A stretch of DNA of 61,337 nt from Bacteroidales bacterium (GTDB lineage: Bacteria; Bacteroidota; Bacteroidia; Bacteroidales; JBBRXJ01): NCBI GenBank assembly GCA_038248505.1, contig JBBRXJ010000005.1, forward strand, positions 1 through 61,337, read 5' to 3'. The notes below the pieces were generated by a model. That model was not told where the DNA came from. It searched no databases and saw nothing but the letters and a program-made list of their open reading frames with translations. Every line of letters starts with the position of its first letter. The first letter of the stretch is position 1. The position numbers and the translations under genes were made by a program. Positions 319 through 11,579 of the stretch are shown in pieces.

Positions 319-3300
319 GTGAATCAGAATTTTATGTCTAATGATAAAGATTATTTAAAGAGTTACGATAAAGATCAGCAAATTCAAATTTTGCAGCAAG
401 AGTTATTGGAACTTAAAAAAGCTTATGGTGAATTGCTTTCAGCTATGCGTATGAATGATAGAAAAGCAATTGAAAATAGTTTTATTGATTTCATAAAATC
501 ACATTATTCTAATTCAACAAATATTTTCCACAGTTTTATTAATCAGTCTTCTGAAGGTATATCGCTTGCTGATAGTGATGGTCGGATTATAGAGTGGAAT
601 CTTGCGATGGAACGTATGTTTGGCTTAGATAGAAAGAACGTTGTTGGTTTAAATATATGGGAATTAGAATTTCAGAGAATGCCTCTAGAGAAAAAGACAG
701 AGGAGGCACGAAATAGGATACACGGCTTGATGAAGAGTTATCTGGCAAATTTGAGTCTGATGAAACCCTTATCTTATGAAGGAGAGATGTTAGATGGTAG
801 AGGAAAGCTGATTTTTGTTCAAATCACAATTTTTCCTATTGTTTTAGATAAGGAATGTCTTATTGGTACTTTAACTCGTGATGTTTCAGAGCGACGCCAG
901 ATGATAGATTATTTAGAAGAAAAAAATATTAATCTGGAAACTTTAAATGAAGAATACCATGCCTTAAACGAGGAGAGACAGAATAAAAATGAAGATTTGA
1001 AACAAATAAATGAAAAACTAATAAGAGAAGTTAGTCAACATTTTCAAACTCAAAAATTACTTAGACAACGAGAGGAATTATTCCGTTCTTTTCTGGAGCA
1101 GTCATCTGAAGGCATTATTTTAATTAATACCGAGGGTCGAATTGTTGAATGGAATACGCAAATGGAGCGTATTTTTGATAGGTCAAGAGATGAAATGTTA
1201 TCTACTTTTATTTGGGATTTTGATTATTCAGTGATACCAAATGAGCGAAAAAAGTTTAGCTCAAAGGATCGTTTACAGTCTTCAATTTTAGAATTTTTTG
1301 AAAATCTTCAAAGTATTGAAATTGAGAGTTTAGTTTACTTTAGAAATGAGGAAAGATATATCCGCATTAATATTTTTCCTGTAAAAATTGGGACTGATTT
1401 ATTTATTGGTCGCCATATTAGTGACATTACTGATCGCAAAGAGAGTGACAAGGAGCTTGAGAATTATCGAGCGCATTTAGAAGTTATCGTTGAAAATAAA
1501 TCTCGCGAATTATTAAATACACAAGATCAATTAAAGAGGCTTAGTGATAATATTCCTGGTGGTTTTGTATTTAGAGGTTACACTAACAAAAATGGGCTTG
1601 ACGAAATAGTATATATCAGTACTACTGCTGAATTTTTATTAAATTCAAAAATCATTGAACTTAAACAAGATGGTGTTCCTCCTATATCACGAATACATGA
1701 AGGCGATAGAGATGCTTTTTGTGAAAAAATTGCATATTCAAAATTGACATGCGAATTATTTGATATGGAATTACGTTTTGAAAAAGATAAGAATATTTTT
1801 ATATGGCTTCAAATTCGTATTGATTATAGTTTGGGTGATGATCTATTATTATGGTGGGACGGACTTTTAATTGATATTACTCAAAGAAAAGAAAACGAAA
1901 TAGCCTATCTAGAAAGAGAATATTTAATAAAGAATATACAAGAAGGTATTGCTTCGGCAACGGGTGAAAAACTTTTTAATATATTATTGTCAAAATTGGC
2001 TGAAACGCTTAATGCCGATTATTCATTTGTTGGTGAAGTTAATGGAACTCAAGTTACAACTTTAAAGTTATTCTGCAAAGATGGCATTTTAGATAATTTT
2101 AGTTACGATTTAAAGGGTACTCCATGTGAGAATGTTGTAGGAAAACAATTATGTATTCATACATCAAAAGTAGCTGATAGTTTTGGTGAAGATAATTTAC
2201 TGAAGCAAATGGGTATTGAAGGATATGTTGGGGTTCCTCTTTTTGATTCTCATGGAAGCCCTGTGGGTATTATGGCTGCTCTTTTTAAAAGTTCCATAAA
2301 AGCATCCGAACTTGTAATTAAGGTAATGCAAATATTTTCTCATCGTGCTGGTGTAGAAATTGAGCGTGTTAATTATGAAAGGACTTTACGTGAACGCGAA
2401 GAACATTTTAGAACGTTGTTTGATTTTACTCCCACCTTGCAATTAATTACTACTATGGATGGTGTAGTTTTAAACGCAAATACTTCTTTTCTTAAATCAA
2501 CTGGGTATTCTCGTGAAGATGTTATTGGAAAACGAACAACTGATTTTGGATTGTGGAGTGAAAGTACTAGAAAAAGCTATATGGAAGCGATTGATACGTT
2601 TGGTTTTGTAAATGGAATTAGTACCTATTTTATTAGAAATGATAAACAAAGAAGAGATGTTTTGCTCTCGGCAACGAAAGTAAGTATTGATGGTAAGGAG
2701 TGTATTTTATCAAATGCTACTGATATAACAGAGCTTAAAAAAGCCGAAAAATATATAAAGTATTCTGAAAAACGACTAACCGATGCGCAAGCACTCGCAC
2801 ACGTTGGTCATTGGGAAATTGATCTAATGAACAGAACTATTTCAGGTTCTCTTGAGACACGTCGAATTTACGGATTGGATGAGACTATTGACACTTTTGA
2901 TTTATCTACTGTTCAAGCTCTAGTCCTTTTTGACGATCGGAAGAAAATGGATGATGCCATTACTAATTTATTATCAGGTGAGTCGGATTATGATATTCAA
3001 TTTAGATTAAAAAGAAAAAGTGATGGCATCTTAACTTATGTGCGCTCAAAAGCCGAATTAGAAAAAGATTCTGATGGATTACCTATTCGAATTATGGGCG
3101 TTATTCAGGATATTTCACAAAGTGTTTTAGCAGCAGAAAAGCTGAGAGAAAATGAAGAGCGCATGAAAAACATTCTACTTAATCTTTCTGATATTATTTG
3201 GATTATTGATGAACGTGGGCAAATTGTTTTTGAAACTCCCTCAACTAATCTTCTTTTAGGTTTTACTGAAGGTGAAATGCTTGGCAGATCCTTAAATGCA

Positions 3301-4146
3301 ATGGTACATCCCAATGATTTAGGAATTATTGTTGCTTCACTATATGATTTAAGAAAAGGTTTAACTAGCCATTCACATGCCGAATTGAAAATGAAAAAAT
3401 CGGATGGCACTTATATTTTGGCCGAATGTATTGCTGTTCTTATGCCGGAGTCATTGGTGTCTGGAAATATTATCGTTACCATTCGCGATATTACCGACAG
3501 AAAATTGGTTGAAAAGAAAATGCTCGATGGTATAATTGAAGCTGAAGAACGAGAGAGACAAAGGATGGCAGGAGATTTGCATGATGAGATTGGTCCTGTT
3601 TTATCTAGTCTAAAAATGTATATCTCTTCTTTTGCACCAAACATTCCTGAAGAAAAACAAAAGTACATTATTGATCAATCAATGAATCTTATTAAAGAAG
3701 CTATTACGAGTGTTCGCGAAATATCAAATGCCCTGAGTCCGCATGTACTTAATAATTACGGATTGGTTGCCGCTTTAAAAAATACAATGGATGGCTTTAG
3801 TGATTATATGAAAGTCGATTTTAAATGCAATCTAGAGAAAACTCGACTATCATTGACAATTGAATCGGTGTATTATCGAATTATAAAAGAACTTATTAAT
3901 AATACATTAAAACATTCAGGTGCAAATTCAATAAAAATAGAATTGTTGTTAGAAAAAGATGTGTTACGACTCTATTATTTAGATAACGGAAAAGGTTTTG
4001 ATGTTGACGAAATCATTAAAGAAAAGGGCAGGGGAATTGGTCTTTTTAATATTTTAAGTCGTGTTAAAACAATTAATGGAATTTATAAGTTTTTAGGAGG
4101 AAAAGGCGAAGGTTTTGGCTTTGAATTAGCTACCAAAATTGATTAA
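319..4146 (+). CDS. Cytoplasmic multi-PAS/GAF sensor histidine kinase (HisKA_3, NarX/DegS-like)
   Basis: Several PAS/PAC repeats (e.g. EGIILINTEGRIVEWN, DITDRK) and a GAF segment (KGTPCENVV...GYVGVPLFDSHG). H-box ERQRMAGDLHDEIG; HATPase ELINNTLKHS, DNGKGF, GIGL. No transmembrane helix seen. Confidence 0.93.
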   Translation: MNQNFMSNDKDYLKSYDKDQQIQILQQELLELKKAYGELLSAMRMNDRKAIENSFIDFIKSHYSNSTNIFHSFINQSSEGISLADSDGRIIEWNLAMERMFGLDRKNVVGLNIWELEFQRMPLEKKTEEARNRIHGLMKSYLANLSLMKPLSYEGEMLDGRGKLIFVQITIFPIVLDKECLIGTLTRDVSERRQMIDYLEEKNINLETLNEEYHALNEERQNKNEDLKQINEKLIREVSQHFQTQKLLRQREELFRSFLEQSSEGIILINTEGRIVEWNTQMERIFDRSRDEMLSTFIWDFDYSVIPNERKKFSSKDRLQSSILEFFENLQSIEIESLVYFRNEERYIRINIFPVKIGTDLFIGRHISDITDRKESDKELENYRAHLEVIVENKSRELLNTQDQLKRLSDNIPGGFVFRGYTNKNGLDEIVYISTTAEFLLNSKIIELKQDGVPPISRIHEGDRDAFCEKIAYSKLTCELFDMELRFEKDKNIFIWLQIRIDYSLGDDLLLWWDGLLIDITQRKENEIAYLEREYLIKNIQEGIASATGEKLFNILLSKLAETLNADYSFVGEVNGTQVTTLKLFCKDGILDNFSYDLKGTPCENVVGKQLCIHTSKVADSFGEDNLLKQMGIEGYVGVPLFDSHGSPVGIMAALFKSSIKASELVIKVMQIFSHRAGVEIERVNYERTLREREEHFRTLFDFTPTLQLITTMDGVVLNANTSFLKSTGYSREDVIGKRTTDFGLWSESTRKSYMEAIDTFGFVNGISTYFIRNDKQRRDVLLSATKVSIDGKECILSNATDITELKKAEKYIKYSEKRLTDAQALAHVGHWEIDLMNRTISGSLETRRIYGLDETIDTFDLSTVQALVLFDDRKKMDDAITNLLSGESDYDIQFRLKRKSDGILTYVRSKAELEKDSDGLPIRIMGVIQDISQSVLAAEKLRENEERMKNILLNLSDIIWIIDERGQIVFETPSTNLLLGFTEGEMLGRSLNAMVHPNDLGIIVASLYDLRKGLTSHSHAELKMKKSDGTYILAECIAVLMPESLVSGNIIVTIRDITDRKLVEKKMLDGIIEAEERERQRMAGDLHDEIGPVLSSLKMYISSFAPNIPEEKQKYIIDQSMNLIKEAITSVREISNALSPHVLNNYGLVAALKNTMDGFSDYMKVDFKCNLEKTRLSLTIESVYYRIIKELINNTLKHSGANSIKIELLLEKDVLRLYYLDNGKGFDVDEIIKEKGRGIGLFNILSRVKTINGIYKFLGGKGEGFGFELATKID

Positions 4147-4410: not shown

Positions 4411-4418
4411 TACATTTG
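4411..4418 (+). promoter_or_regulatory. Bacteroidota sigma-A -7 box (TAnnTTTG) upstream of the response regulator
   Basis: TACATTTG matches the consensus, 15 nt before the in-frame TTG at 4434. Confidence 0.6.
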
Positions 4419-4433
4419 GAAAAACCTAAAACC

Positions 4434-5060
4434 TTGAAAAATAAAATCATTATAGTTGACGATCATAATCTCTTCCGAAATGGAATTAAATTCCTTTTAA
4501 GCGAGATTCCTGATATTGAAATAGTTGCCGAAGCATCAGACGGGAAGGAATTTTTAGATATCATTAAAGTAATTACACCAGACATTGTTTTAATGGATAT
4601 TAATATGCCTGTAATGAATGGGGTAGAGGCAACGAAGAGAGCCCTTGAATTATATCCAGATTTAAAAATACTTGTTTTATCGATGTTTAGTGATGAAGAG
4701 TATTACAATACCATGATTGATTTAGGAGTAAAAGGCTTTATTCTTAAAGATGCAGATAATGAGGAACTTAAAAATGCTGTTCGTCGTGTTATTTCAGGAA
4801 ACACATATTTTTCTCAAGATTTATTGGTGAATTTGATCAAAAATAAGCATAGTGCTGATAATGTTTCAATTAGTGGAAGAGAAAAAGAAGTGCTAATTCT
4901 AATTTGTAAAGGGTATTCAACTGGAGAGATTGCAACAGAGTTGAATTTGAGTATGAGAACAGTTGAGAGACATCGTAGTAGTTTATTAGAGAAGACAAAC
5001 TCCAATAATTCAATAAAACTAGTTCTTTTTGCTATAAAGAACAATCTAGTTAAAATTTAA
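4434..5060 (+). CDS. NarL/FixJ-family DNA-binding response regulator
   Basis: REC domain (IIIVDDH, VLMDINMP, GFILKD) plus LuxR HTH (SGREKEVL...LSMRTVERHR). The ORF track starts at 4416, but that TTG lies inside the -7 box, so the in-frame TTG at 4434 is preferred. Confidence 0.93.
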   Translation: MKNKIIIVDDHNLFRNGIKFLLSEIPDIEIVAEASDGKEFLDIIKVITPDIVLMDINMPVMNGVEATKRALELYPDLKILVLSMFSDEEYYNTMIDLGVKGFILKDADNEELKNAVRRVISGNTYFSQDLLVNLIKNKHSADNVSISGREKEVLILICKGYSTGEIATELNLSMRTVERHRSSLLEKTNSNNSIKLVLFAIKNNLVKI

Positions 5061-5439: not shown

Positions 5440-5647
5440 TAGGCAATTTAGATAATTATATGAATAATATCAAATTGTTTACAAAGGTTTCTATAATAGC
5501 AAATATTTTTCCAGCACATCAAAATATGAATTTCCCAGTTTAATACGGAAACTGTCGGTAATTACGCAATGATTTTGAGTGTTAATTTCTGTTTTTTGCG
5601 TGGATATATCATTGATTCTGATATGTTCTTGTTAGTATATTTGTATC

Positions 5648-6028
5648 ATGATTAGCAGCATAATGAAAAATCTAAAAGTATGTATAGTTGATGATAATGC
5701 TCATTTTGTAAAAGCATTTCGTTTTATGCTTGAGGATACACAAAGTGAAAAGATAGATAAAATTTATGAAGCTAAGAATGGTCAAGAATGTCTTGATCTT
5801 TTAAAAGAGAAGCCAATTGATGTTGTTTTTATGGATATTGACATGCCAGTGATGAGTGGTATAGAAGCTACAAAAAAGATTGTGGATGCGTTTTGGGGAG
5901 TAAAAGTAGTGGCTATTTCTTTTCATTCAGAAATGAGTCATATTAAGGAAATGCTTGAGGCAGGTGCTAGAAATTACATTATTAAAGAAGATATAAATAA
6001 AGAGATTTTAGAGTTTTGTTTAGCATAA
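5648..6028 (+). CDS. Stand-alone receiver-domain response regulator
   Basis: VCIVDDN, VFMDIDMP, ARNYIIKE; 126 aa with no output domain. A TATATTTG -7 box lies at 5636-5643. Confidence 0.9.
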   Translation: MISSIMKNLKVCIVDDNAHFVKAFRFMLEDTQSEKIDKIYEAKNGQECLDLLKEKPIDVVFMDIDMPVMSGIEATKKIVDAFWGVKVVAISFHSEMSHIKEMLEAGARNYIIKEDINKEILEFCLA

Positions 6029-6042
6029 GGTAGTATTTTAAT

Positions 6043-6110
6043 GAATTTCTTTTCATGGTTTTAGGTTTAAGGTTAGTAAAAAGGGCTTTCGCTCCCGCGA
6101 AGCCCTTTTG
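6043..6110 (+). ncRNA. Candidate sRNA, copy 1 (seed TTCATGGTTTTAGGTTTA + terminator hairpin)
   Basis: Seed at 6052-6069, then hairpin AAAAGGGCTTTCGC-TCCC-GCGAAGCCCTTTT. Lies in the 3' region of the receiver gene. Confidence 0.55.
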
Positions 6111-6123
6111 AATAAAAGAATTA

Positions 6124-6184
6124 AATTTTTTCTCTTCATAGGTTTAGGTTTAGGTAAGGGGTTGACACGAGTCACCCCTTTTTC
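6124..6184 (+). ncRNA. Candidate sRNA, copy 2 (seed TTCATAGGTTTAGGTTTA + terminator hairpin)
   Basis: Seed at 6135-6152 (16/18 identical to copy 1), then hairpin AAGGGGTTGAC-ACGA-GTCACCCCTT and a T-tract. Confidence 0.5.
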
Positions 6185-6314
6185 AATTAAATTGTAATCT
6201 TTTATTTAAAAACTGTAAAATTATTTGCGTCGAATTCTTTAACAAAATATCTTTGCTAAATAATTTATCGCTATATTTCCAATTAGCTCAATCTAATTAT
6301 TTTGTTATTATAAT

Positions 6315-8219
6315 ATGTTTGAAAATTCAATCGATAATAAGCTAAGATCTTCTTTGATGAAAAATAATCAGGAGTTGATATTAAAGAGGATAAAAGACTT
6401 ATCGACCGATGGTATATGTATTATTGATCAGGCTGGAGTTATTCTAGATCTTAATAACGCTGCTAAAAGTATTTTGGCATTAATTACACGTGATGACGCT
6501 TTGGGTTTAAATTACGTTGATATTTTGCCATTAAATATTCGCAATAAAGCCCTTGATTTTTTTAATAGCATTATTAATAATGGAGGTTTTGAAACTACTT
6601 ATTTTTCAATTCCTTTAGTAGATAAGAGTATTCTTGAGTTAGAGATTCGTACATGTCTGCTAAATAATTTGGAGATAAAGACATCACCTATTCTTGTGAT
6701 ACTAAAAAATATTTCCAATACAAAGGCAATAGGCGAGAGAACACAAATATTAAATAAATTATTAGAAGATATTTTTATTCCTAGTTCTAGTATATTAAGT
6801 GAGAGAGAAAGAATGTATCAAATCATCATTCAGCATTTGAAAGATATGATTTGGGTGGTTGATAATGATTCAAGAATTAATTATGTTTCTCCCTCAACAA
6901 CAAAAATATTAGGATATACACCGGAAGAAGTTTATGGATTGATAGGTATGTCTTTTATTCATCCTGATGATTTATTTACCACCCAGAGTTCTTTGTTAGA
7001 ATTACTCGAAAAAAAATCAGATAAAGTTTTGTTTGAATTTCGTGTAAGACATTTGTGTGGGCATTATTTATGTTTTGAGGCCGAAGCGGAATATCTTATT
7101 GATTATCCTGGTATTGATGGTATCGTTGTAAGAGCACATGATGTGAGCATACAAAAAGAAGCCGAGTTATTATTAAGAAACAGTGAAGAGAAATTTAAAA
7201 ATATTTTTCATTCGAGCAGCGATGGAATTACTATTACAGATATTAAAGGCAATTACCTTGAAACTAATCAAATTGCAATTGAAAGAACAGGATTATCACA
7301 TGAGCAATTTTTGAAAATGAATGTACGGGATATTTTGAGAGATAAATACCCTGGCCATCTTGATAAAATGACAGATCATATTTTACGTTTTGGTAATATG
7401 GTCTTTGAAACGGATTATATTTCAAAAGAGGGCAAGTGCATTTATATTGAAATACGAAGTAAATTAATACAGTTCTCAGGTGTACCTGCTATTATGCATT
7501 TAACAAGAGATATTACGGATTGTAAAAATCTGGAAAAAGAAGTAGTAAAAACGATGATTGAAACCGAGGAGCGTGAACGTAATCGTTTTGCTCAAGACTT
7601 ACACGATGGATTGGGCGCTTTATTATCAGGAGTAAAAATGTATCTTAGTTTAATGAGGAATGTGCAGTTTTCAGAAATGGAGCGAAATAATATGCTTGAT
7701 AAAACGAGTGTTTTAATTTCAAAAGCAGCCCAAAGTGCACGCGAAATAGCAAATAACATTAAGCCGCCCGAATTAGCTCGTTTTGGCTTAATTGCAACGC
7801 TAAACTCATTTATTGATAGAATACTTGGTGAGATGAGTATAGATGTTCAGCTTAATTTTAATAACTATAACATTCGCCTGCGCGATGATATTGAGCTAGT
7901 AATTTATAGGGTCGTTTCAGAACTTATTAATAATACGATACAACATGCGGAGGCAAGCAAGATTGAGATTGAGTTATATAACGCAAATGGCATCTTATTT
8001 TTAAACTATTTGGATAATGGTAAAGGATTCGATTTTGACACTAAAAGACATGACCAAAGTAGCGGAATGGGTTTACGTAACGTAATAAATCGTATAAATA
8101 GCCTTGATGGCGAAATTTCAGTTGTAAGTCAAGCTGGGGAAGGTTTTAAATTCATTGCTGAAATTAAAATTAAAGAAAAGTTTATTCTTTTTGCAAAAGA
8201 AAAGTTATATGAAGAATAA
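6315..8219 (+). CDS. Cytoplasmic PAS-domain sensor histidine kinase (HisKA_3)
   Basis: Three PAS domains (e.g. YVSPSTTKILGY..FIHPDD). H-box ERNRFAQDLHDGLG; HATPase ELINNTIQHA, DNGKGF, GMGL. Confidence 0.93.
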   Translation: MFENSIDNKLRSSLMKNNQELILKRIKDLSTDGICIIDQAGVILDLNNAAKSILALITRDDALGLNYVDILPLNIRNKALDFFNSIINNGGFETTYFSIPLVDKSILELEIRTCLLNNLEIKTSPILVILKNISNTKAIGERTQILNKLLEDIFIPSSSILSERERMYQIIIQHLKDMIWVVDNDSRINYVSPSTTKILGYTPEEVYGLIGMSFIHPDDLFTTQSSLLELLEKKSDKVLFEFRVRHLCGHYLCFEAEAEYLIDYPGIDGIVVRAHDVSIQKEAELLLRNSEEKFKNIFHSSSDGITITDIKGNYLETNQIAIERTGLSHEQFLKMNVRDILRDKYPGHLDKMTDHILRFGNMVFETDYISKEGKCIYIEIRSKLIQFSGVPAIMHLTRDITDCKNLEKEVVKTMIETEERERNRFAQDLHDGLGALLSGVKMYLSLMRNVQFSEMERNNMLDKTSVLISKAAQSAREIANNIKPPELARFGLIATLNSFIDRILGEMSIDVQLNFNNYNIRLRDDIELVIYRVVSELINNTIQHAEASKIEIELYNANGILFLNYLDNGKGFDFDTKRHDQSSGMGLRNVINRINSLDGEISVVSQAGEGFKFIAEIKIKEKFILFAKEKLYEE

Positions 8220-8246
8220 TTAAATTAAATTTGAAAAAAATTACTT

Positions 8247-8897
8247 ATGAAATACGTAATAGCAATTGTAGACGACCACAAAATTTTTCGTGAAGGTTTT
8301 AAACTGGTTCTTAAAAGTATTGGGCTTGTAAAACAAGTGCATGAAGCATCTGGAGGCAAAGAACTGCTTGAGATTCTTTCAAAAGAAAAAGTTGATTTGG
8401 TTTTTATGGATATTAATATGCCAGGAATTGATGGTGTTGAAGCCACTCAAAAGGCATTGCAATTATATCCTGGTATTAAAATTATAGCTATTTCAGCTTA
8501 TGATAGTACCGATTATGTAAATAAAATGATACATGCAGGTGTTGAAGGTTATTTACTTAAAGATGCTGATTATGAAGAGGTTGAAGAAGCTATTAAGAAT
8601 GTGATGAATGATAAAAATTATTTCTCACAAAAAATTCTTATTAATATTACTAAAAGTAGCATTTCAAAACGCGATGATAATAGAAAGAAGTCTGATTTGC
8701 CACATTTAACAGATCGTGAGACACAAGTCGTGAAAATGCTTTGTAAAGGTGAAGGCAAAAGAGAAATTGCTGCAAAATTATTCATCAGTGAACGTACTGT
8801 TGAGAAACATAAAGAAAATCTTCTTATGAAAACTGGTGTAAATAACTCGGTTAACCTTGTTATATACGCTCTAAAGCATAAGATTGCTGAATTATAA
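8247..8897 (+). CDS. NarL/FixJ-family DNA-binding response regulator
   Basis: IAIVDDH, VFMDINMP, GYLLKD; LuxR HTH LTDRETQV...FISERTVEKHK. Confidence 0.93.
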   Translation: MKYVIAIVDDHKIFREGFKLVLKSIGLVKQVHEASGGKELLEILSKEKVDLVFMDINMPGIDGVEATQKALQLYPGIKIIAISAYDSTDYVNKMIHAGVEGYLLKDADYEEVEEAIKNVMNDKNYFSQKILINITKSSISKRDDNRKKSDLPHLTDRETQVVKMLCKGEGKREIAAKLFISERTVEKHKENLLMKTGVNNSVNLVIYALKHKIAEL

Positions 8898-8921
8898 TAG
8901 TGTCGATTATTACCGTATTAT

Positions 8922-8958
8922 AATGGGTGTTTCATACAATGAAACACCCATTTTTTTT
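8922..8958 (+). terminator. Rho-independent terminator
   Basis: AATGGGTGTTTCAT-ACA-ATGAAACACCCATT perfect 14-bp stem plus a T-tract. Confidence 0.9.
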
Positions 8959-9010
8959 GATTGTTTTTCTATAATCTATACTGTGTGTTTGATTGTGATT
9001 CATATTTTGA

Positions 9011-9165
9011 TAATTAAAGCAGATCTCATATATATCAATTAAAGCAAGACGCTTAGGCATTCGCTGCGGCGAAAAACTCAATGTGGCACCTCAACCACCT
9101 ACCTTGGTATTTTAGAATGAATTTTGTCTTTGGTGTATCATTATGCAGAATCAAATAAAGTATTC
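9011..9165 (-). repeat. Dispersed non-coding repeat, copy B (carries a ~35-nt insertion)
   Basis: Reverse-complement homologue of 4186-4306. The insertion at ~9060-9094 contains GTGGCACCTCA, identical to 4254-4264. Confidence 0.85.
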
Positions 9166-9291
9166 ATATTCGATAATAAGACGTATAAAATTACGTCTAA
9201 ATCCCATTGGCTTTTTAGAAAATGATAAATAAAAATAAGCGATATTTACATTGATTTTAATAGAGAAATTATTATCCATATTAAAATTAAT

Positions 9292-9350
9292 AATTTTCAG
9301 TTCATGGTTTTAGGTTTACTCCATCCTTTCATAGGGATGGAGTTTCTTAT
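9292..9350 (+). ncRNA. Candidate sRNA, copy 3 (seed TTCATGGTTTTAGGTTTA + terminator hairpin)
   Basis: Seed at 9301-9318 is identical (18/18) to copy 1. Hairpin ACTCCATCCTT-TCAT-AGGGATGGAGT followed by TTCTTATTTT. Confidence 0.55.
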
Positions 9351-9364
9351 TTTATATCGCAGCC

Positions 9365-10744
9365 CTATCTTCCGTAATAGCTGAATTTTTGGCTTTTGCT
9401 GGCAATTGTTCTAAATGAAACAGAGTCTCCTTCAAATTCTAATTTTGTAACCATAGTGTAGGATTTATTCCATTCATTAGAAGGTTTAATATGCAACCAA
9501 CCTTTATCCCAGTCAGAATACCCACCAATATATTTCCATTCCAGTGTTTTGCTTTTGTTGAGTTGAGTAATCCTTTTAGGGATTGAATTTGTTCCCTTTA
9601 ACACCAAGTAATTAGTTGGTATATCGTATGAAAATAGATAGAGAACGCTTCCTTTGCGTGTTACGGCACCATTAAAATATCCAGCAGCTAAAGCCGCTTT
9701 GCTACTAAAAATAGCTTCTGAATTTTCGTTTACCCACTTACCAAAGCGCTCTAAAGTATCGAGTTGGTTCTTCGGTATCGTTCCATCTGCATCAGGTGCA
9801 ACATTGAGCAGCATATTTCCTCCCATGCCAATTACATCGCAAAAAGTGCGTACTAAATAGCTTACTGGTTTTATATTTGTATTTGCTCCTGCTTTACCCC
9901 AACCGTCACCTGGAGTAATGCATAACTCCCACCAATCACCTCTATCCTGCAAGGGTACAATTTGTTCAGGTGTTCCGTAATGGCCTAAATTTTTATGTCT
10001 TAATCTATTATTTATTACTGCATCGGGTTGTAGTGAGTCAATCATTTTGGCAAGTTTTATACTCTTCCATTGCTCAGCACTGCGCTCCCAATCGCCATCA
10101 AACCAAAAGAGATCAACTTTACCATAGGCGCTACATAAATGACGAACCTCTTTGAACATTTGTTTTACAAAAAGATTCCATTTTACGGTATCCGTTTCAT
10201 TTGAGTATGCACGTTCTTTGCAATCCTTTTTACCTTCAGGACATTTAATGCTCGCATAGTTTGGGTTTGTCCAATCGGGTAAGCTGAAATAAAAACCTAC
10301 ACGTATTCCCTCAGCACGTAATGCTTCAACATATTCTATCAACAAATCGCGGCCAGCTGGTGATGCCTTAGTAGCGCTGAATTTATGACCCTCACAATCG
10401 AAGAGTGAAAAACCAATATGATGTTTAGTGGTTAGCACAACATATTTTGCTCCTGTATTTTTAAAAAGTTTGGCCCATTCTTTAGGATTGTACTTTGATG
10501 CTGTAAATAGTGAAGCTGATTTACGTGCAGATTCATTAAGGCTCATACTATCTGTTTTTTCTTTATTAGCATCGGGCAACAACCAATGAACAAAAATTCC
10601 TAATTTGGCTTCGGGAAACCATTTAACACCAACACGAGAGGTATCTGAATGAAATGTTTCTTCAGCGATCTCAACTTTTGTTGATTCTTGTTTGCAGGCT
10701 TGTAATAGGCATACAGTTATTAATAATATAAAATGTATTCTCAT
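9365..10744 (-). CDS. Alpha-L-fucosidase (GH29), probable lipoprotein
   Basis: WFPEAKLGIFVHW, GAKYVVLTTKHHIGF, LFWFDG, VINNR, GGNMLLNVAP. Signal/lipobox MRIHFILLITVCLLQAC from the ATG at 10744 (ORF track extends to 10768). Confidence 0.92.
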   Translation of the reverse strand: MRIHFILLITVCLLQACKQESTKVEIAEETFHSDTSRVGVKWFPEAKLGIFVHWLLPDANKEKTDSMSLNESARKSASLFTASKYNPKEWAKLFKNTGAKYVVLTTKHHIGFSLFDCEGHKFSATKASPAGRDLLIEYVEALRAEGIRVGFYFSLPDWTNPNYASIKCPEGKKDCKERAYSNETDTVKWNLFVKQMFKEVRHLCSAYGKVDLFWFDGDWERSAEQWKSIKLAKMIDSLQPDAVINNRLRHKNLGHYGTPEQIVPLQDRGDWWELCITPGDGWGKAGANTNIKPVSYLVRTFCDVIGMGGNMLLNVAPDADGTIPKNQLDTLERFGKWVNENSEAIFSSKAALAAGYFNGAVTRKGSVLYLFSYDIPTNYLVLKGTNSIPKRITQLNKSKTLEWKYIGGYSDWDKGWLHIKPSNEWNKSYTMVTKLEFEGDSVSFRTIASKSQKFSYYGR

Positions 10745-10751
10745 TGATTTA

Positions 10752-11579
10752 TTAATTAAAAAACTCAATTATAATTTTATTTACAATACTTGATCGTTCT
10801 TGAATGACGGAGTGCCTGGCTGAAGGAATGATACATAACTGTGCTTTTTTACCAATCATTTTATACATTTTAATTAAATGATCAATTTTTACGATATCGT
10901 GATCGCCTCCTGCAATTAAAACAGGAATTGTAATTTGTTGAAGTTTATCCATTTCAATATATGGATCGCGAAGCCACATTTCTCGTGTTTTTATTACAAA
11001 ATTATCGGCGTTTGAAACCTGTGGATTTGTTTTCTTGTATTGCTGTATAAAACTATTTTTTGATGCTGGAGACATATTTTTAGCACTCTCAATGACTGAT
11101 GGAATTAAACCATCAAGGCTTGCATTAGCACCAAATACAGCAATCTTTTTAATCTTAGTTTCAGTTGCTGCTAAATGCAATGCTAGAATACCGCCATCAC
11201 TCCATCCAAAAATATATACACTATCTAAATTCATTTTTGTGATGAGTATTCGAATATCATTTGCCATTTGATCGTAAGCATGAAAGTTGCCCGCATCAGT
11301 TGATCTGCCATGACCGCGATAGTCAATAGCAATAACTTTGTATTTTTTTGAAAGCGCTGGAATGTTAAAACGAAGATCACTGATAGATCCCATGCCTCCG
11401 TGTAATACAATTAATGGTGCCCCTGTGCCATAGATTTCACAATATAAATCAACTTCACCTGTACTAACATAAAAGGATGCATCACTATTTGATCCATAAT
11501 TTATTTGCTTCTGTGCGGATAGTTGTGTGAAGAAAGCTATTGTAGAATACAGTAAAATGAATCGTAATTTTATATACAT
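10752..11579 (-). CDS. Secreted alpha/beta-fold hydrolase
   Basis: Signal peptide; VLHGG, DYRGHGRS, GWSDGG nucleophile elbow, GGDHD. Confidence 0.9.
   Translation of the reverse strand: MYIKLRFILLYSTIAFFTQLSAQKQINYGSNSDASFYVSTGEVDLYCEIYGTGAPLIVLHGGMGSISDLRFNIPALSKKYKVIAIDYRGHGRSTDAGNFHAYDQMANDIRILITKMNLDSVYIFGWSDGGILALHLAATETKIKKIAVFGANASLDGLIPSVIESAKNMSPASKNSFIQQYKKTNPQVSNADNFVIKTREMWLRDPYIEMDKLQQITIPVLIAGGDHDIVKIDHLIKMYKMIGKKAQLCIIPSARHSVIQERSSIVNKIIIEFFN

Follow-up and report, generated by a model that had tools for sequence, protein, structure and literature searches.

Putative FopS-like seed-and-terminator elements in a two-component gene cluster of a Bacteroidales bacterium

The window analysed here is the whole 61,337 nucleotide (nt) stretch of contig JBBRXJ010000005.1 (positions 1 to 61,337, forward strand; GenBank assembly GCA_038248505.1) from a Bacteroidales bacterium (GTDB lineage JBBRXJ01). 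It carries a two-component signalling cluster with three short elements, each made up of an unpaired 5' stretch, which contains the 18-mer TTCATGGTTTTAGGTTTA or a variant of it, and a hairpin with a T-run on the 3' side. Two of them (elements 1 and 2) stand in tandem behind a stand-alone receiver gene and element 3 lies at the end of the cluster, the layout described in an earlier note on this DNA. The comparisons below suggest that the elements are divergent relatives of FopS, a family of small RNAs (sRNAs) that pair with start-codon regions, and that they are borne on the 3' ends of signalling-gene mRNAs.

The signalling cluster and its three elements

A pattern search of the window confirmed the two exact copies of the 18-mer and the copy with two mismatches, all on the + strand (Table 1), and revealed a fourth site, absent from the list in the earlier note, on the minus strand at 4421-4438 (two mismatches). 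The number of matches expected by chance in the window is 0.17, and four matches were reached in 0 of 100 shuffles. The genome searched is a 3.36 Mb assembly (150 contigs, 34% G+C, 96% complete), in which 30 sites are found within three mismatches of the 18-mer; the only exact sites are the two in the window.

The likeness of the three copies extends beyond the 18-mer, since the approximately 16 nt on its 5' side are also similar (TTAAT.A.TTTC..) and an AATTT run precedes each copy. Over the core 18 positions, element 2 shares 16 and element 3 all 18 with element 1, whose 18-mer starts 23 nt after the stop codon of the receiver gene. The hairpin had been described as directly following the 18-mer; this is the case in elements 2 and 3 and not in element 1, where the 9-nt AGGTTAGTA lies between them. 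Element 3 is without the AAGGTTA extension. The hairpins are unrelated in sequence, as had been claimed, and do not align with one another (MAFFT); a family-specific model of the variants was for this reason not feasible and a search with IUPAC patterns was used instead.

In the RNAfold predictions the 5' part of each element is unpaired and the 3' part folds into a hairpin. The minimum free energies are -18.6 kcal/mol for element 1 (z -1.95; 6 of 200 shuffles as good), -13.9 kcal/mol for element 2 (z -1.59; 16 of 200) and -18.5 kcal/mol for element 3 (z -4.70; 0 of 200), so that only the hairpin of element 3 is individually unusual. It is also the only element hairpin on the + strand that was flagged by a simple terminator scan (9318-9343).

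Every gene of the cluster around the elements is on the + strand (Pfam; Table 1). In the region from the terminator of response regulator RR2 to element 3 (8953-9294, about 340-350 nt) there is neither an open reading frame (ORF) of 60 or more codons nor a -7 box on the + strand. Between the -7 box of the receiver gene and its listed ATG (5648) there are 4 nt, and the Pfam match begins at residue 11; either the receiver mRNA has almost no leader or translation begins at a later codon.

Table 1 Features of the signalling cluster, in positions of the window.
Feature	Positions	Strand	Basis and details
PAS/GAF histidine kinase (HisKA_3, HATPase_c)	319..4146	+	Pfam
-7 box TACATTTG, Bacteroidota-type, of the RR1 gene	4411..4418	+	Box scan; genome-wide enrichment of the box upstream of genes
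Predicted target site, RR1 leader and TTG start codon	4421..4438	+	16/18 complementary to the seed
Response regulator RR1 (receiver and GerE/LuxR helix-turn-helix), TTG start	4434..5060	+	Pfam
-7 box TATATTTG of the receiver gene	5636..5643	+	Box scan
Stand-alone receiver gene	5648..6028	+	Pfam
Element 1, FopS-like	6046..6114	+	Unpaired seed region ~6046-6078; 18-mer 6052-6069, then AGGTTAGTA; hairpin 6079-6109, then TTTTGAAT
Element 2, tandem second copy	6129..6190	+	Seed variant TTCATAGGTTTAGGTTTA at 6135-6152; hairpin 6156-6180; T-run
-7 box of the second PAS kinase gene	6248..6255	+	Box scan
PAS histidine kinase (HisKA_3)	6315..8219	+	Pfam
Response regulator RR2 (receiver and GerE)	8247..8897	+	Pfam
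Strong terminator of RR2, between RR2 and element 3	8922..8952	+	Terminator scan
Element 3	9295..9352	+	Exact 18-mer 9301-9318 joined directly to hairpin 9318-9343; T-run
Alpha-L-fucosidase gene; element 3 faces its 3' end	9365..10768	convergent	Pfam

Relation to FopS and distribution of relatives

FopS is a paralogous sRNA family (Rfam RF04319, BTncRNA_FopS) with 14 paralogues in Bacteroides thetaiotaomicron, where the RNAs have been shown experimentally to pair beside the start codon of susC-type mRNAs and to block translation, and where RbpB, an RRM-1 protein, binds and antagonises them (PMC11697453). The FopS consensus is a single-stranded 5' stretch, the seed, followed by a terminator hairpin (PMC11697453). 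The folds of the three elements agree with this consensus: in each, the terminator hairpin is directly 3' of the seed (RNAfold), and the hairpin sequences differ from that of the consensus. Two RRM_1 proteins, the class to which RbpB belongs, are encoded in the genome.

At gathering thresholds Rfam gave no match in the whole window, and the genome has no FopS match over the RF04319 cut-off of 56 bits. Element 1 scored 31.7 bits on this model (E 0.048 for 3.6 kb against all families; E 0.0107 for the genome). Its first 28 nt match the 5' 28-mer of a bona fide FopS copy, itself scoring 86.6 bits, at 25 of 28 positions without gaps, more than at any other site in the genome; the best value was 22 for a reversed query and 20-23 for ten shuffled ones. 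The seed of element 1 has three substitutions relative to FopS, and there are more in elements 2 and 3.

A second model, R1, combines 24 FopS-like sequences, all taken from other genomes and none from this one; 21 of them exceed the Rfam cut-off and three fall short of it. Element 1 is its top match in the genome (40.4 bits; E 0.002 for the genome and 3.7e-5 for the window) and element 2 its second-best match in the window (22.9 bits; E 0.039). The scores are 12.6 bits for element 3 (E 2.3) and 10.0 bits for a fourth copy in the genome, on contig C86 (E 0.74). Sub-threshold variants from other families, which were not part of the model, scored 49.8, 37.2 and 32.5 bits (E 1.1e-7 to 1e-4), and these intermediate scores form a graded series from canonical FopS to the elements of the window. 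The 32.5-bit variant (L112:1454-1522, minus strand; G029:C42) combines TTCATAGGTTAAGGTTAGGTTAA with a hairpin and T-run; at the usual distance no -7 box is obvious.

Based on these comparisons, the assignment of element 1 as a relative of FopS is well supported and that of element 2 is marginal, while element 3 and the C86 copy appear tied to the family only through their likeness to element 1, that is, the shared 18-mer. The earlier note did not recognise the arrangement as described and named FopS only as an analogy. The Rfam search and the relatives point to a divergent form of FopS itself, and the seed-plus-terminator design is most likely not an undescribed class but the known FopS kind in variant form.

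A search of 40 related genomes for the 18-mer with up to two mismatches revealed a recurrent sequence, TTCATGGTATTAGATTTA, in five genomes from five other families of the order. All copies that were fetched have AGGT(T)AA, a hairpin and a T-run on the 3' side and a TAnnTTTG box 9-10 nt on the 5' side. When 12 loci were scored on RF04319, 11 exceeded the cut-off (59.8-86.6 bits) and the twelfth, the C86 copy of this genome, had no FopS match in Rfam. FopS is found over the cut-off in 5 of the 41 genomes searched and at E <= 0.001 in 9 of 41; in the host's own family, this genome included, 0 of the 8 genomes searched has a match at E <= 0.001. The genomes with FopS over the cut-off represent five families of the order and have 2 to 6 copies each (G008, G024, G026, G027 and G036; L039-L049 and L079-L088). 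The FopS family may be wider than the conservation within Bacteroidaceae stated in PMC11697453.

The locus is conserved in a genome from another genus of the same family, with the same gene order: regulator, receiver, element, PAS kinase and regulator. The element of this genome (TTTTCATGGCCTAAGGTTTTAAAGGGAG with a hairpin and T6) starts 21 nt after the stop codon of the receiver gene and scores 20.4 bits on model R1 (E 0.012). For its seed (element at L002:1401-1480, minus strand; G003:C225) the predicted pairing partner is CTAAAACCTTA, 10 nt that lie just 5' of it in the same 3' untranslated region (UTR), and this pairing could form a self-masking hairpin.

The C86 copy begins 20 nt past the stop codon of a chemoreceptor gene and lies in a chemotaxis-type cluster (C86:9687-13992) with CheW and two methyl-accepting chemoreceptor genes, between the receptor genes and next to cheW. 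With the looser pattern TTCATRGNNTWAGGTT, a strong hairpin together with a short opposite ORF was found in the four copies here, one in the other genus and one in another family; most of the remaining matches are the reverse complement of gene starts. A genome-wide family of repetitive extragenic palindromic (REP) elements or miniature inverted-repeat transposable elements (MITEs), the former already considered in the earlier note, was rejected, as the genome has four seed-plus-hairpin copies only and the other near-matches are mostly reverse complements of gene starts.

Complementarity of the seed to start codons

Gene starts were approximated as the first ATG of ORFs of at least 100 codons (2383 ORFs, 82% of the genome), and TTG and GTG starts, for example that of RR1, are outside this set. 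The start regions of this genome are A-rich and without a Shine-Dalgarno signal. The 18-nt seed was scanned against 2377 of them (-30 to +15), and 35 gave duplexes of -14 kcal/mol or better and 10 of -16 kcal/mol or better. For 60 shuffled seeds the corresponding means were 5.8 (maximum 17) and 1.15 (maximum 4). Shuffles that keep UUCAU gave means of 12.2 (maximum 29; 0 of 50 reached 35) and 2.4 (1 of 50 reached 10). The real seed had 14 and one such duplexes in gene interiors and six and none in the antisense of the start regions.

The pattern of near-matches agrees with the scan. Four of the 30 genomic sites within three mismatches of the seed complement are the elements, and 11 of the 30 supply the start codon for an ORF of 60 or more codons, compared with a mean of 2.3 and a maximum of 6 in 30 shuffles that keep ATGAA (0 of 30 reached 11). 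The seed complement is therefore enriched at start codons across the genome, an outcome on which the earlier note had made its proposal depend; that proposal, a small-RNA family with a 5' seed pairing to start-codon regions, is supported both by this enrichment and by the resemblance to FopS.

In the cluster, the start region of RR1 forms a predicted duplex of -20.2 kcal/mol with the seed (rank 3 of 2378; ranks 9 and 4 with the longer sequences of elements 1 and 3), and the neighbouring RR1 gene at 4434 appears to be the best local target candidate. The position of TACATTTG suggests that the RR1 leader is about 10 nt long. The start regions of the receiver, kinase and RR2 genes are unremarkable (rank 819 or worse of 2377), and that of RR2 is not complementary to the seed.

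The 19 best candidates with an ATG start include, by Pfam, a DUF3276 protein, an N-terminal fragment of GH92, CreD, SprB/CHU_C and PKD/CHU_C proteins, PorP/SprF, a protein with a Por secretion tail, GH3 and an aminotransferase; five have no Pfam match. The top-ranked candidate, a HemD fragment, was set aside: it aligns to positions 72-229 of the Pfam profile, so its ATG is probably internal and not the true start. The genome has three intact SusC genes and one that appears broken (C49:4220-7319), whose match is in three pieces with two TAA stops in the first; the start region of the broken gene has rank 33 of 2377 with the longer seed of element 1.

Several weak FopS-model matches in the genome were considered as sRNA genes and rejected; by eye they are the reverse complement of start regions and could be target sites. 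Those on C42 and C49 open ORFs with signal-peptide-like starts. The C42 match (C42:163-228; gene start C42:216, + strand) covers a start region that is 23/28 complementary to the canonical FopS 5' region, and the encoded protein (229 residues) begins with a signal-peptide-like sequence and lacks any Pfam match. Read on the strand opposite the gene, this start region is the best RF04319 match of the genome, and it is thus a candidate target site, not an sRNA.

Expression, interpretation and known systems

The -7 box TAnnTTTG is used in this genome: in the 120 nt upstream of 2363 ORFs it occurs 594 times in sense and 297 times in antisense, with a peak 21-40 nt before the start codon, while the TTTC variant of the box is not enriched (165 sense, 224 antisense). 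The + strand boxes of the cluster are at 4411, 5636, 6248 and 8226, one per gene, and there is none on this strand between 5636 and 6248 or between 8226 and 9440. FopS copies of other genomes carry the box; the 3'-UTR-derived FopS member of B. thetaiotaomicron is a precedent for a copy that has no transcription start of its own (PMC11697453). With no boxes of their own, the elements resemble appendages in the 3' UTRs of upstream genes more than genes driven by a regulator; the promoter of the receiver gene would supply elements 1 and 2 as the 3' UTR of that gene, and element 3 would need read-through of the RR2 terminator. The GacA/Rsm-type logic put forward in the earlier note, in which a NarL-type regulator drives the promoters of sibling sRNAs, is not borne out by this arrangement. 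The other option of that note, titration of an RNA-binding protein, likewise gains no support here.

We consider it probable that elements 1-3 are divergent relatives of FopS, anti-start-region RNAs carried on the 3' ends of signalling-gene mRNAs. The features from which this reading is built were computed: the sequence and architectural likeness, the syntenic copy, the missing promoter boxes and the start-codon enrichment of the complement. From them we infer transcription, processing or release, action in trans, the involvement of an RRM protein and the identity of the targets, RR1 included. Each RNA would be about 55-70 nt long and would consist of an unstructured, U/G-rich 5' seed that contains CAU and of an intrinsic terminator behind it. 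If FopS is taken as the model, the seed would pair across the start codon with an A-rich initiation region that has no Shine-Dalgarno sequence and would block initiation, and an RRM-type RNA-binding protein might modulate the pairing. The receiver-gene mRNA probably carries elements 1 and 2 at its 3' end, and element 3 could be made only by read-through past the RR2 terminator. Targeting of RR1 would provide a feedback link inside the cluster.

An extension of this mechanism is more doubtful. Transcription of the receiver gene could release sibling small RNAs that shut off RR1 translation through the leader of about 10 nt and the TTG codon, which would couple the two two-component pairs at the RNA level. 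FopS-type seeds would then be hard-wired into the 3' UTRs of signalling genes (the stand-alone receiver and the chemoreceptor), and the role of the family in environmental Bacteroidales would be signalling cross-talk and not glycan uptake.

Several observations weigh against FopS-type RNAs on signalling mRNAs. No element reaches the RF04319 cut-off (element 1 has 31.7 of 56 bits and elements 2 and 3 are unreported), the R1 scores of element 3 and of the C86 copy are not significant, and the hairpins of elements 1 and 2 are not unusual compared with shuffles. The elements have no promoter box of their own in a genome that uses the box, and the route of expression of element 3, behind a strong terminator, is doubtful. 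In the other genus, the element forms a weak duplex with the start of its own RR1 (-13.2 kcal/mol; that regulator is split over two contigs), so that there is no covariation support for the RR1 target, and a third member of the family with a syntenic receiver-kinase-regulator locus has no element and has its RR1 orthologue elsewhere. The 19 best predicted targets are heterogeneous and include no SusC-type gene (0 of 19), and with the core seed the four SusC start regions have ranks of 166, 692, 2304 and 253 of 2377. Convergence could also produce an anti-start-region sequence, given the low complexity of the start regions here.

The 3'-UTR position also fits elements that act purely in cis, as terminator modules in which the conserved stretch is a protein-binding or stability determinant and no trans-acting RNA is released. 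Element 1, the C86 copy and the element of the other genus all begin at a near-constant 20-23 nt after a stop codon, the elements of the window have no promoter boxes of their own, and the seed of the other genus is predicted to pair within its own UTR. We find this explanation unlikely, as the stretch is nearly identical to the seed of the trans-acting FopS and its complement is enriched at start codons. One FopS member of B. thetaiotaomicron is itself 3'-UTR-derived (PMC11697453), so the position does not exclude action in trans.

It is rather improbable that some copies, element 3 above all, are decaying, unexpressed relics of FopS-type genes that have lost their promoters. Such decay would account for the missing box, for the place of element 3 behind a strong terminator and before a convergent gene, for its lack of the AAGGTTA extension, and for the presence of four copies where Bacteroides genomes have 12-15 (PMC11697453). 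Against this, the 18-mer is identical in elements 1 and 3 despite different hairpins and flanks, a pattern that indicates either selection on the seed or recent gene conversion, and the approximately 16 nt upstream are also common to the three.

A DNA operator, the direct repeat GGTTT(T)A GGTTTA, bound by a GerE/LuxR-type regulator of the cluster is quite improbable, since it leaves unexplained the same orientation with a hairpin and T-run at every copy, the 25/28 match to an RNA seed, and both the copy behind a chemoreceptor gene and the facing of element 3 towards the 3' end of the convergent fucosidase gene. It would suit the presence of four sites within 5 kb of the two-component cluster, one overlapping the RR1 promoter and leader, and the distance from elements 1 and 2 to the kinase -7 box at 6248, which lies some 100-200 nt downstream of them.

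Small ORFs, either starting on the minus strand, where the reverse complement of the seed resembles a start region with an ATG, or read on the + strand from the ATG inside the seed (18 and 26 codons, readable by eye in elements 1 and 3), are hardly credible: the minus-strand ORFs have 24, 28 and 2 codons and are unrelated, which also removes the conserved minus-strand ORFs considered in the earlier note, element 2 has ATA for the + strand ATG, like many bona fide FopS copies, and small ORFs are excluded for FopS by a statement of its authors (PMC11697453).

FopS has been reported as a family of the Bacteroidaceae with a role in tuning the glycan-uptake loci of gut Bacteroides, and in PMC11697453 the term 'two-component' is confined to the reference list and to hybrid two-component regulators of glycan loci. 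A literature search at the level of titles and abstract openings gave no link between FopS and classical two-component loci. What differs here is the host, from a distant family of the order, the lack of an own promoter, the predicted location on signalling-gene mRNAs and the occurrence at the same locus in two genera. If the reading as FopS relatives is correct, the range of FopS would be widened and a second mode of use would be suggested, borne on 3' UTRs and with a two-component regulator as target. It would also mean that the Rfam FopS model, built on the paralogues of one species, misses divergent relatives. As all of this comes from sequence analysis, it would be a modest extension of a known system.

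The proposed route resembles that of enterobacterial 3'-UTR-derived sRNAs tied to two-component systems, for example CpxQ from the cpxP mRNA, in that a small RNA would be made at the 3' end of a signalling-related mRNA, share its terminator and act on other mRNAs; CpxQ differs in having no sequence relation to the elements, in belonging to another phylum and in being Hfq-dependent, and the analogy is functional only. Closer in sequence is GibS (Rfam RF04182), an sRNA of about 140 nt that has its R1 seed in common with FopS and a second seed, R2 (PMC11697453). A weak RF04182 match extends across elements 1 and 2 (25.3 bits, E 1.6), far under the cut-off of 115, and nothing like R2 is found here.

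The closest known system is FopS. The elements of the window differ from it in scoring below the Rfam cut-off, in their unrelated hairpins and in having no TAnnTTTG box, whereas nearly all FopS genes in B. thetaiotaomicron have canonical promoters (PMC11697453). Four copies were found in the 96% complete, 150-contig assembly here, three of them clustered, compared with the 12-15 per Bacteroides genome. The elements follow receiver or chemoreceptor genes at 20-23 nt, show no in silico preference for SusC start regions, and come from a host in another family of the order. In common with FopS they have a predicted length of about 65-70 nt, a single-stranded 5' seed, UUUUCAUGGU.UUAG.UUUAAGGUUA, followed by an intrinsic terminator, several copies per genome, complementarity of the seed to start regions without Shine-Dalgarno sequences, a genome that encodes RRM_1 proteins and a 3'-UTR position, as in one member of the family in B. 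thetaiotaomicron (PMC11697453).

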